NCBI GenBank assembly: GCA_964486045.1
Contig: CAZALK010000008.1
Coordinates: forward strand, 1 to 64,000
DNA: 64,000 bases
Direction: 5' to 3'
Source: an uncultured archaeon
GTDB lineage: Archaea > Asgardarchaeota > Lokiarchaeia > Sigyniarchaeales > SOKP01
Part shown: positions 24,001-28,946 of the stretch, one piece after another
How positions within the stretch are numbered: the stretch's first letter is position 1
Layout: each line of letters starts with the position of its first letter
Translations under genes and position numbers: made by a program
Notes under the pieces: generated by a model
Databases searched by the model: none
Told to the model about the DNA's origin: nothing
Seen by the model: the letters and a program-made list of their open reading frames with translations, nothing else

Positions 24001-27000
24001 CCTGATTCAAGAACCGGACTCGCTAAAACAACCGCCACACTTGATGTTATTGAGGTCATTCCTGAGGATGGAAAAGTAATAATTGATAGTAATCCTCGAA
24101 CAAGCCCCAATAAAGTTCAGATTGAGGGAGGTAGATATCTGCATTATTCTTCTGCTCAAAATGGTGTATATGACCAAGTATTTGTCCTTGATGAAGATAA
24201 TAATGTATTAGCGGTTTCCATGGATTATGATTATAATTTCCGTGTAGAACCCAATAAGAAAGTATTTACGGAGAAACATATCATGTCCACCGAGGTCGTA
24301 GAAGGGGATGTAGAGTACTTAATGGCTGATTCTCGAGTGTATCTACGAGACTTTGATAGATATGATGGATTTTCCTTAGATCCAACATTTGCCGATTCTT
24401 TCTACGATATTTGGAAAATAGCTTATACTTCAAGCACGAGTCAATTAATAAAGGAAGTGAAAGCGATTACATCTAGCCAGTTTGTACAATCTGTTCAGAC
24501 GAGAATTGTAGGAGATGTAGTATGGCAAGTTGCATCCCAAATGATAGCATTTGCTGTTTCTTCACTTCTTCATGCTATACCTGGTATTGGTACGGTTTTG
24601 TCTGGTCTGGCTTATGCATTAGTTTACGGTCTTTTAAATGCTGCTAAATCATGGCAAGAGACAATAGCAAATGAAAATATTATCGCATCGCAGACACTCA
24701 ACAATGAAAACTATGAGGGAGAGATAACACTTTCTTCTAAGGGGGCCTATTCGGACCTATGGGGTGGTACACTACCCAATATCGTTGGATTTAGCACGGC
24801 AGGAGTTTATACTGACATACGATTAGAAGTAGATAAACACATCTTCAAAGGTAACATGTTGCTTGCTCCAAAGGGTGTTCATAAAACAGACTTTTTAGGA
24901 ATGAGAAATATACCAATTTCACTTGATTACACAAAGCAGAAAGGAGGATATATTATATATTCTGACTTTAATGATCCCCGTTTAGCTCCTTACATCGATC
25001 CAACACCCCCTGCACCCGGATTGTTGTTAGGCACGGCTGGTATAATAAGCTATGCTCAGCAAGTTGAGGCCTACAAAGCCAGTTTAGATACTGATGTTAT
25101 TTACATGGCAAATACCATGATATTTCTAGAAAACGCGATTTCCAAGCAGACCAATGGTGAGTACTATACTGTCTATCCATACATGATGTCAAGAGAAGGA
25201 ACTTTTGTACCTACATATCAATTTTCTGGATTCAATAGCAAATATCCAACTCCAGAGTATTACCATGACTATCCCGTATTTGTAGATGAGGAACATTACT
25301 CACAGTTTGAAAACGAATATAGCATTATATATAAAATATTTGATATTGAGAGTACTAAAGAGATTCAGCTTATCCCTGACGATGGTGTTCACGCGATCTA
25401 TAGTGATGTCGCTGAGATCGATGTTATATTTAGAGATACTCAAGGACTTAATATACCTCTAGGACCTTTCAAGGCCTCTGCGGGATTATTTACTTATAAT
25501 GAGTTCACAGGTATCTTAACTATGGGTGATGTGTTATACAATGATCTTCACGGACAACTAACCGCATTATTTAATAGTTATTCCGGAGTGCAAGGTTATG
25601 ATGCATATATCGTATTGCAAGTTAAAATAGCAAAATATCGGTCTATGAGTGATCTCCAAGGAATGACACAAAAAGAGGTAAATCACATTGCCACCATGCA
25701 AGCTATAGAACAGTCCATCTTAGAATACACATATCAGTTCAAGCACGCTCAGGCCACTCAACAGGGTTTATCGGAGATGTTTTACACTACGTTTATAACC
25801 GTTATAAGTACTGTGATTACCACGGTTATAACCTTAGGTGTAGGTGCTGTAGCAGGGAAGCTTAGTAAGGTGATAACCAAGGAAGCAGGAGAGGCTGGTG
25901 GTATTGTAAATGTTGGTAAATTCATTGACGTTGCAACAAAGAGTTCAACAAGAGCGTTCCAGAGGGTTATGAGTGCTTTATCAAGTAGAACCTCTCTTAT
26001 AAGTATTATGCTTTCTCCGATAACAGAGCCCCTTCAAGAAATATTCGTCGATCCCTACCTAGAGACCATCGTGACTAATCTCGCTGCCAAAGCAGGTTGG
26101 AACGTCTTTTGGCAAGTACTCGCCAGTAGTATGGTAGAGGGTGGCAGAGAGACGCTTACCGGTTCAATGTCCCAATTCCTTTTTGGTGGCTCTCAAACAA
26201 ATACTCAAGGTTTAGTAGAGACTCGACATGTAATGGGTGAAATGCGTAGCACAGAACAAAGTGCTTCTATAAGTTCCATCGATAACAAGAAATATTCACT
26301 CAAAGTCACCCCAAAATGGAGTTCAGTCATTAAGTCGGGAGCATCCCTTATACTCGGGGCAGCACTCATCGGAATCGGCGGACCTATGTTCTTTGGCGCC
26401 ACTCTTGCCAGCGGATTTATTGCCCTCCAATCAATTTCCCAAGATGTAAAGATCCTAAAGACTCTTACTCATAATATTGTCTCCAAACAATTGCCAAGTG
26501 ATTACCATCTAAATGATGTTATAGCTGATAGTACTGATGCTTTAATTGATGAAGGAATAGAAGATGCCATAGAGTGGGCTCAAGTGAGTTCAGTATCTAA
26601 AGATGCATTTCCAATTACTCCAGAGCACATTGCTTCGATATATGAGGAAATTGCTTTGGGTCTTGGTCAAGGAGGTGGTGCGCCTAGTTATAATATACAA
26701 AATGAATTGCCTGCTTATTACCGCAAAATAGGTCAGATTAGGCAGGCCCATCAAGGAGAGGTTATTTATGAAAAAATGATTGAATATTCTGAAGCTGTAG
26801 TTCAGAGTGTCAGAGACGAATTTAGAGCCGCAAAAGTGGAAATTGATCAGAAAGATATACAGACGAAGATCATCAAGTTTGTTGCCGTCTCTACAAATCA
26901 TAAAGTCATGTTCGGTGACCCTATATTTGACAAAGTAGTTGCCAATCCTGCTAAATATGGTTATCTCTATAATGTTTATCGCTGGAATTGGAAGGGACAG

Positions 27001-28457: not shown

Positions 28458-28946
28458 TTGGTTTTTAGTGAGAAGACTTTGACAGATATTCGGCACCTTG
28501 ATTATCTTATTGATAGAGTTTGGGAGAAATTTTTTCTTAGAACTTGTGGGTTAGATTTCATACAATATTGGCTTCACGAGGAGATCCTAACACAAGATAT
28601 CTTAGAGACTCATTTAGACGATATAATTGATAAAGTGATTGGATTTATGGATTATATCTACAATCCTCTGATTAAACCTCGATTACCCACGTATGACGGT
28701 TATTGGATTAATTCGATAGATGATATCCTAATCGGATTACAAATTCTTGGGATTTTGATCCTTCAAACTGGAGCTAATTTACCTGAGTTTGTTAGAAGAG
28801 GTATATTATATTCTACTTTGTGGACATATGATAAAAGAAGGGGGTGGGGTATATCATTTGAAGATAAAAGAAAAAGAAATCTTGAAAAGTTTCGAGAAGC
28901 CATATTTAACCATAAAAAAGATCAACACATAGAAATCTCCTTCTAA
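28458..28946 (+). CDS. Hypothetical helical protein; candidate immunity protein for the upstream nuclease tip
   Basis: 162-aa ORF 113 nt downstream of the giant ORF on the same strand, with no recognisable catalytic motif. The immunity role is positional inference. Confidence 0.7.
   Translation: MVFSEKTLTDIRHLDYLIDRVWEKFFLRTCGLDFIQYWLHEEILTQDILETHLDDIIDKVIGFMDYIYNPLIKPRLPTYDGYWINSIDDILIGLQILGILILQTGANLPEFVRRGILYSTLWTYDKRRGWGISFEDKRKRNLEKFREAIFNHKKDQHIEISF

Follow-up and report, generated by a model that had tools for sequence, protein, structure and literature searches.

A giant Asgard archaeal membrane protein with a variable GIY-YIG tip and a co-varying small gene: a candidate polymorphic toxin–immunity locus

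A giant carrier gene, its tips and its partner

We analysed the first 64 kb of contig CAZALK010000008.1 (here C8) from an uncultured Asgard archaeon of the class Lokiarchaeia (GCA_964486045.1; genome 5.18 Mb in 45 contigs, ~31% G+C), and this whole stretch of 64,000 nucleotides is referred to below as the window. At its start lies the 3′ part of a giant gene followed by a small gene of 162 amino acids (aa), which together form a candidate polymorphic toxin–immunity locus. In frame +1, no stop interrupts the sequence between base 1 and the stop codon at 28342-28344, giving 9,447 aa, and the frame runs off the contig edge on its 5′ side; the 5′ end of the gene is missing because the window starts where C8 starts. 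The initial annotation, made from the sequence alone, had described a giant gene with a long body, hydrophobic blocks, a linker and a GIY-YIG tip, followed by a small gene, and each of these was present where it had been placed (Table 1). In what follows, C3, C4, C7, C9, C10, C13 and C23 are further contigs of the same genome (G000), and other G numbers denote related genomes.

Table 1. Features of the giant-gene locus in the window and related copies in the same genome
Feature	Location	Strand	Basis or remark
Giant body, aa 1-8172, N-terminus missing	1..24516	+	Acidity, sequons, low Cys
Conserved membrane module, ~700 aa	24517..26442	+	Hydropathy and conservation
Gly/Ala-rich hydrophobic block 1, 43 aa	24517-24645	+	Hydropathy; probable hairpin
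Gly/Ala-rich hydrophobic block 2	25777-25857	+	Hydropathy
Last Gly/Ala-rich hydrophobic block, 36 uncharged residues	26335-26442	+	Hydropathy; central GGP
Junction (homology arm), where paralogues cease to match	26443..26604	+	Nucleotide identity
GLGQGGGAP flexible linker	26659..26685	+	Translation; model residues 1-7 with pLDDT <50
Tip N-terminal helices, tip aa 8-64, chiefly one long helix (aa 35-64)	26680..26850	+	AlphaFold model; generic helical matches only
GIY-YIG (URI) nuclease domain with ~95-aa helical insert	26905..27513	+	Model, VIA-align, conservation
First probable AraC/MarA-like bipartite helix-turn-helix domain, tip aa 287-401	27517..27861	+	VIA-align, Foldseek
Second probable AraC-like helix-turn-helix domain, tip aa 414-550	27898..28308	+	VIA-align
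162-aa partner gene, candidate immunity protein	28458..28946	+	TTG start; conserved family
Paralogue, 9,498 aa	C7:1-28497		78% identity over aa 1-8882
Paralogue, 5,235 aa	C4:281939-297646		72% identity
Paralogue, 2,010 aa	C23:293-6325		86% identity
Orphan, 669-aa open reading frame	C13		Last hydrophobic block only
Orphan, fragment	C3		Last hydrophobic block only, in part
Distant relatives	C9, C10		

The body of the protein (aa 1-8170) has an isoelectric point (pI) of 4.1, an Asp plus Glu content of 15.4% and only six cysteines. It carries 132 N-x-S/T sequons against a mean of 100 in shuffled sequences, and none of 2,000 shuffles exceeded 132; the earlier description of more than 8,000 acidic, sequon-rich residues therefore holds. 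Sequons occur at 1.6 per 100 aa in the body, whereas the last 1,277 aa (window 24511-28341) contain none, and the tips of C7, C4 and C23 likewise lack them. A Pfam scan of aa 1-8,200 at E 0.01 detected no domain in the body, which also shows no internal repeats at BLAST E<1e-5. The body is probably an extracellular stalk or loop and may be glycosylated. A full-length distant relative of 12,745 aa (G003:C7) begins with ~195 basic residues followed by a single transmembrane helix (start region G003:C7:18900-19900), in which case the giant body would form an extracellular loop held by two membrane anchors. In another genome, an open frame of 20,619 aa (G024:C13:86444-148304) contains a distant version of the membrane module and would be among the longest prokaryotic open reading frames (ORFs). 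Contigs C7 and C8 start at one homologous base of their giant genes (nt 1-400; 92% nucleotide identity), which looks like an assembly break at a common repeat, and both giant-gene N-termini are therefore missing. Genome contamination is 7.8%, and a strain variant is conceivable.

Behind the body, hydropathy located three Gly/Ala-rich blocks, in agreement with the hydrophobic helices noted at first, with a soluble domain of ~370 aa separating the first two. This membrane module is kept in C7, C4 and C23, whereas C13 retains the last block only. It was present in 10 of the 36 same-genus genomes sampled, within open frames of up to 20,619 aa. Searches of the module against Pfam, NCBIfam, PADLOC and PHROGs gave no match, and a related-locus search with the module as query returned no relative. 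Between module and tip, the window copy has only a Gly-rich linker. The C13 orphan carries a ubiquitin-like segment between its module remnant and its tip (Pfam ubiquitin, E 1.3e-4), which the window copy does not have, and the orthologue at G084:C32 shows a similar segment before its tip as judged by eye.

A tblastn search of the giant protein against its own genome revealed at least five further copies that carry the module and end in unrelated tails; two are short orphan cassettes (Table 1). Aligned copies agree through the last hydrophobic block, and their final 530-650 residues are unrelated; C7, C4 and C23 share body and module with the window copy and diverge completely past this block. 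At the nucleotide level, identity to the window ends at 26488 in C7, at 26591 in C3 and at 26604 in C23, and no copies of the junction DNA were found in the genome besides those on C8, C23, C3, C7 and C13. The exchangeable cassette spans ~2.35 kb (26593-28946) and is in frame with the carrier. The orphan cassette on C3 starts midway through the last hydrophobic block, with an in-frame TGA, and its arm matches that of the window up to EWAQVSS; it encodes its own tip with a canonical-looking GIY-YIG motif, together with a tandem gene of the 162-aa type. The cassettes on C13, which joins the last block to a different tip, and in G109 resemble it. Among the ORFs directly beside the C3, C13 and C23 cassettes, Pfam found no integrase or other match, the flanks not having been searched systematically.

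The tails of the other copies also point to nucleases. The C4 tail matched the phage homing-endonuclease families phrog_559 (E 1.3e-11), phrog_9084 and phrog_7140, and the C7 tail matched HNH models (phrog_15471, E 2e-4; PADLOC HEase, E 1e-3; Pfam HNH_3, E 0.02). The C7 tail additionally gave a sub-threshold match to the Pfam effector-associated domain EAD1 (E 0.0034).

The giant gene and the 162-aa ORF are separated by a 113-nt AT-rich spacer with a candidate TATA-like element, TTTATATA, at ~28410-28417. This fits the initial annotation, which had placed a candidate TATA box before the small gene; the element was recognized by sequence reading. Aligned with its homologues, the protein may instead start at another in-frame TTG, at 28479. 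The family has conserved motifs, often occurs as a tandem of ~300 aa and was found in 35 of 134 genomes of the taxonomic family, a degree of conservation that rules out a chance ORF. The 162-aa protein is predicted to be cytoplasmic. It matched nothing in Pfam, NCBIfam, PADLOC or PHROGs, and the best score in the ESM Atlas was 0.87, which gave no lead.

Linkage between tip and small gene was evident in other genomes. Members of the 162-aa family lie directly downstream of window-family tips in four of them: at G084:C32, with the same tip-partner-cdhC order; at G109:C8, after a tip remnant; at G086:C9, after a 1,352-aa protein consisting of membrane module and tip; and at G121:C74, after a giant of at least 12,800 aa. 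Tip and partner share 41-42% identity with their G084 counterparts, compared with 75% for the adjacent cdhC. We then considered co-variation across 24 carrier loci, defined by the membrane module, among which few pairs have homologous tails. A same-strand ORF starts 33-126 nt past the stop codon in 22 of the 23 carriers with readable downstream sequence, with one more at 649 nt. Partners of the 162-aa type accompany 4/5 window-family tips as against 3/19 other tips (Fisher p 0.014), and eight locus pairs share both tip and partner homology by BLAST where 2.1 were expected; the carrier loci are mutually related, and both statistics overstate independence accordingly. The partner at the fifth window-family locus is linked by BLAST to that of G121. 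Of the three exceptions, the C3 and G031 tips are linked by BLAST to the tip of G121 as remote relatives, and G024_C28 is unclassified. An unlinked orphan copy of the partner gene was found at C10:111942-112376.

Proteins with leucine-rich repeats (LRRs) follow the tips of C7, C9 and C10 (L003:4600-5937, L007:4575-5039, G000 C10 and C9). The downstream proteins of C10 and G003:C9 show BLAST links to these LRR proteins as well as to the 162-aa family, a pattern suggestive of domain fusion.

Structure and conservation of the tip

The tip (26659-28341) comprises 561 aa and opens with the linker, whose translation and position were exactly as first read. It had been described as a basic region of ~550 aa with GIY-YIG motifs. 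The motifs were confirmed, but the region is neutral (pI 7.4; Lys plus Arg and Asp plus Glu each 12.5%) and far less acidic than the body. An exhaustive HMMER search of 1.84 billion representative proteins returned 50 relatives (22 at E<1e-30), and for most of them the alignment covered all 540 residues. Motif residues and candidate catalytic residues were conserved as follows among 26 aligned family members: Y107 in 24 members, Y132 and G134 in 25, R142 in 25, and E250 and N276 in all 26. The Arg (27082) and Glu (27406) singled out in the initial annotation correspond to R142 and E250, and are thus conserved family positions. Near-invariant columns also include E238, H240 and G268-T269, while 18 members have His at position 146 and six, the window copy among them, have Glu there. 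The spacing from GIY to YIG is 25 aa in the window subclade, where it is widened by an 11-aa hairpin insert.

AlphaFold2 run on the family alignment modelled the whole tip with a predicted local distance difference test (pLDDT) score of 89.7, and the nuclease domain alone with 93.5. When the domain model was compared with 48,161 PDB representatives by VIA-align, the top four matches were all GIY-YIG enzymes: the I-TevI catalytic domain (1ln0; Z 7.7, root-mean-square deviation 2.5 Å over 90/92 residues), T4 EndoII (Z 5.9), PD-T4-3 (Z 5.4) and the UvrC N-terminal domain (Z 4.6). The first unrelated match had Z 3.3, and Slx1, HIGLE, Eco29kI and Hpy188I appeared further down the list. The GIY-YIG fold was thus recovered, and by its model the tip is a GIY-YIG nuclease with intact catalytic residues.

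Of the methods applied, only VIA-align resolved the fold. Foldseek against the PDB gave no match at E 0.001 or better for either the whole tip or the domain model, probably because the ~95-aa helical insert splits the nuclease domain. The Pfam GIY-YIG model did not match the tip even at E 10, nor did the tip match anything in Pfam, NCBIfam, PADLOC or PHROGs, and phmmer searches of the tip and three paralogue tails against PDB sequences returned nothing meaningful. Against PDB sequences, the tip-family profile weakly reached two GIY-YIG proteins through the YIG-R motif, BH0048 (E 0.54) and a homologue of SLX1 (E 2.2). The helical insert itself (27073-27351, tip aa 139-231) gave mostly CARD/death-fold matches, at Z 2.3-2.9 only.

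The nuclease domain is followed by what are probably, though not certainly, two AraC-like DNA-binding domains. For the first, VIA-align gave the Ada N-terminal/DNA complex (Z 7.9), 3mkl (Z 7.7) and MarA (Z 7.1), and for the second the AdpA DNA-binding domain (Z 6.8), XylR (Z 6.7) and the AraC DNA-binding domain (Z 6.3), values that lie within the noise range of the tool for helical folds. Foldseek matched the first domain to the AraT C-terminal domain with probability 0.96. No Pfam helix-turn-helix (HTH) model matched the tip. The combination of nuclease and HTH domains, together with the matches of the paralogue tails, points to a homing-endonuclease ancestry of the tip.

Relation to known systems and interpretation

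Zhang et al. 2012 (PMC3482391) describe polymorphic toxin systems as rare in archaea and report that archaea lack most immunity superfamilies. In that study, the toxin family Tox-URI1 has the residue pattern Y, YxG, R, E, N, and the window tip shows the same pattern. As in bacterial Tox-URI1 systems, we observed a long conserved carrier, variable C-terminal nuclease tips and a small gene tracking the tip family. Also in common are orphan cassettes in which tip and partner follow a short homology arm, and partner copies at unlinked sites. Unlike those systems, the host is an archaeon, and no Rhs, filamentous-haemagglutinin (FHA) or other known repeats or trafficking domains were found in the carrier, whose N-terminus is missing. 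The window carrier is 2-4 times longer than typical carriers and has a ~700-aa multi-block hydrophobic module before the tip, the 561-aa tip includes the two probable AraC-like domains, and the partner matches no known immunity family.

The locus resembles CdiA-CT/CdiI, where CT is the C-terminal toxin, in its sharp breakpoint past a conserved segment, its modular CT-plus-immunity cassette and its orphans downstream or elsewhere, but differs in having no two-partner secretion (TPS) domain, FHA repeats, VENN motif, CdiB partner or outer membrane. CdiA identity was rejected on the absence of TPS, FHA and VENN matches in Pfam (E 0.01 for aa 1-8,200; E 1 for the last 1,447 aa) in a protein whose N-terminus is missing. 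Rhs identity was likewise rejected, as neither a Pfam match for YD repeats or the Rhs core (PxxxxDPxGL) nor internal repeats were found. Archaeal polymorphic toxin systems were predicted in 2019 (Makarova et al., mBio, as cited in PMC8416519), and, as the citing article summarizes them, those loci combine a long first gene with C-terminal toxins of the DNase or RNase type and neighbouring immunity genes, a layout that resembles the present one. No description emerged from full-text searches that paired Asgard with polymorphic or contact-dependent toxins, Makarova et al. 2019 being covered only through the account in PMC8416519.

Compared with I-TevI and free-standing GIY-YIG homing endonucleases, the tip has the same order of an N-terminal catalytic domain followed by, in its case probable, HTH DNA-binding modules. 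It differs from them in being fused in frame to a giant membrane protein, in having a co-varying small gene, in its ~95-aa helical insert and the 11-aa hairpin insert of the window subclade, and in lacking a Pfam GIY-YIG match. Many unrelated giant genes (>3,000 aa) have been reported across Asgard genomes (Wu et al. 2022, PMC8813620), for which no function, tip polymorphism or immunity partner was described; the "aloposon" giants of that study are tandem genes beside tRNA sites, unlike the window locus. In sum, the carrier, membrane module, long DNA-binding tip and partner family differ from every described system, while the logic is that of bacterial polymorphic toxins.

We estimate a probability of roughly 60% that the locus is the 3′ part of a polymorphic toxin–immunity system of a Promethearchaeota (Asgard) archaeon. 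The initial annotation had proposed a polymorphic toxin, and three results that bear directly on this proposal support it: the tip is not invariant, the small gene is linked to it, and the GIY-YIG fold was recovered. From this genetic architecture we infer delivery of the tip, its toxicity and protection by the partner. The tip would pass to a neighbouring cell, where it would bind and cut DNA, and the 162-aa protein would bind the tip and shield the producer and its kin. The membrane module would hold and translocate the tip, and new tips would be gained by recombination at the conserved arm encoding the last hydrophobic hairpin. The C-terminal half of CdiA is held back until contact, and by analogy the tip may be held back in the same way.

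A bolder version, which we offer tentatively and regard as doubtful, is that Asgard archaea possess a contact-dependent weapon or kin-recognition device of their own, not derived from bacterial systems. A protein of 10,000-20,000 aa, membrane-anchored at both ends, would hold a DNase of homing-endonuclease origin at the cytoplasmic face of a translocation module rich in hairpins and pass it into a touching cell, and exchangeable tip/antidote cassettes would define kin.

Asgard archaea are the closest prokaryotic relatives of eukaryotes, and we found no description of polymorphic toxins for this lineage. If the toxin–immunity interpretation is correct, up to ~60 kb of coding sequence per gene would be spent on cell-to-cell conflict or recognition, which would bear on how Asgard archaea interact with neighbours and syntrophic partners and would explain what some of their puzzling giant genes do. 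It would also add a new carrier with its membrane module and a new immunity family, and would mean that enzymes of the homing-endonuclease type were recruited as exchangeable effectors.

Several observations weigh against a delivered toxin. The flanks of the last hydrophobic block were net positive in 5/5 paralogues tested (left +2 to +4, right 0 to +4). Because both flanks are positive and the tip has no sequon, a cytoplasmic resting position of the tip is suggested, and a hairpin that leaves it in the producer's own cytoplasm is no less likely than an arrangement that exposes it. No secretion, export, pre-toxin (HINT, VENN, PT-TG) or releasing-peptidase domain was found by Pfam and NCBIfam in the last 1,447 aa. 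The majority of tip relatives stand alone as soluble proteins of 500-950 aa; their N-termini are hydrophilic and unremarkable and their catalytic residues intact, and therefore the family seems to be tolerated by cells in the cytoplasm. These relatives occur in unrelated genomic contexts with no adjacent partner gene. A profile of the partner family found no match in four genomes (92-99% complete) with stand-alone tip homologues, and a fifth such genome has only a broken and unlinked partner copy. Finally, with ~270 aa of probable DNA-binding domains, the tip is closer to site-specific homing endonucleases than to compact bacterial toxins.

The initial annotation had named a membrane-anchored receptor with a cytoplasmic nuclease output as its alternative. 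A cytoplasmic tip would suit such a receptor-effector acting in the producing cell: on sensing a virus, a surface or a partner cell, the giant ectodomain would activate or release the nuclease of the same cell for suicide, abortive defence or self/non-self control, with the 162-aa protein as inhibitor. Besides the positive flanks and the sequon-free tip, the pairing of a conserved sensor with variable nuclease effectors, typical of defence systems, is consistent with such a role, as are weak death-fold hints in the insert (CARD-like, Z 2.3-2.9) and in the C7 tail (EAD1, E 0.0034). These hints are at noise level, however, and PADLOC matched neither tip, partner nor membrane module. The orphan cassettes, in which tip and partner come with a homology arm, and the unlinked partner genes are both characteristic of polymorphic toxins, and we consider a receptor-effector unlikely.

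A different view starts from the nuclease itself. Free-standing GIY-YIG, HNH and PD-(D/E)xK homing endonuclease genes might have homed into the last-hairpin DNA of a multi-copy giant family, in which case the fusion would be incidental and nothing would be delivered. I-TevI is the best structural match, a nuclease plus HTH is the architecture of a homing enzyme, the paralogue tails match phage homing-endonuclease families, most tip relatives are free-standing, and the breakpoints cluster at a single conserved site. Such a selfish cassette would, however, have no need of a co-varying partner protein. The tail is moreover in frame, with no intervening stop, in all ~24 carrier loci, and the tip-cdhC arrangement is kept in two genera, at 41% tip identity, which leaves this explanation with a small probability.

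That the protein is a membrane-anchored adhesin whose cytoplasmic DNA-binding or regulatory tail is a tethered AraC-like factor with a vestigial nuclease would agree with the two probable AraC-like HTH domains and the flank charges, but is improbable given that the catalytic residues are conserved in 24-26 of 26 members, the window included, that other paralogues bear unrelated nuclease tails rather than regulators, and that the partner gene and orphan cassettes are left unexplained.

The neighbouring cdhC locus

The next gene, cdhC (29185-30558), is 88% identical to cdhC of Promethearchaeota/Promethearchaeia metagenome-assembled genomes, including Loki_b32, which supports the Asgard origin assigned at the outset. 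In the 4 kb upstream of cdhC in 80 other Promethearchaeota, no tip, partner or membrane module was found, and the cassette is accordingly accessory at this locus.

About 24 conserved N-terminal cdhC codons lie upstream of the first ATG (29185), reaching back to a TGA at 29077-29079 with no in-frame ATG, GTG or TTG. The gene may be 5′-truncated, or may have an unusual start or a mini-intron. The cdhC match in G084:C32 (3791-3818) consists of two segments 27 nt apart. Of 11 inspected relatives, most have a 183-aa gene and a 480-590-aa gene ahead of cdhC, and in the window the giant-gene cassette stands in their place.

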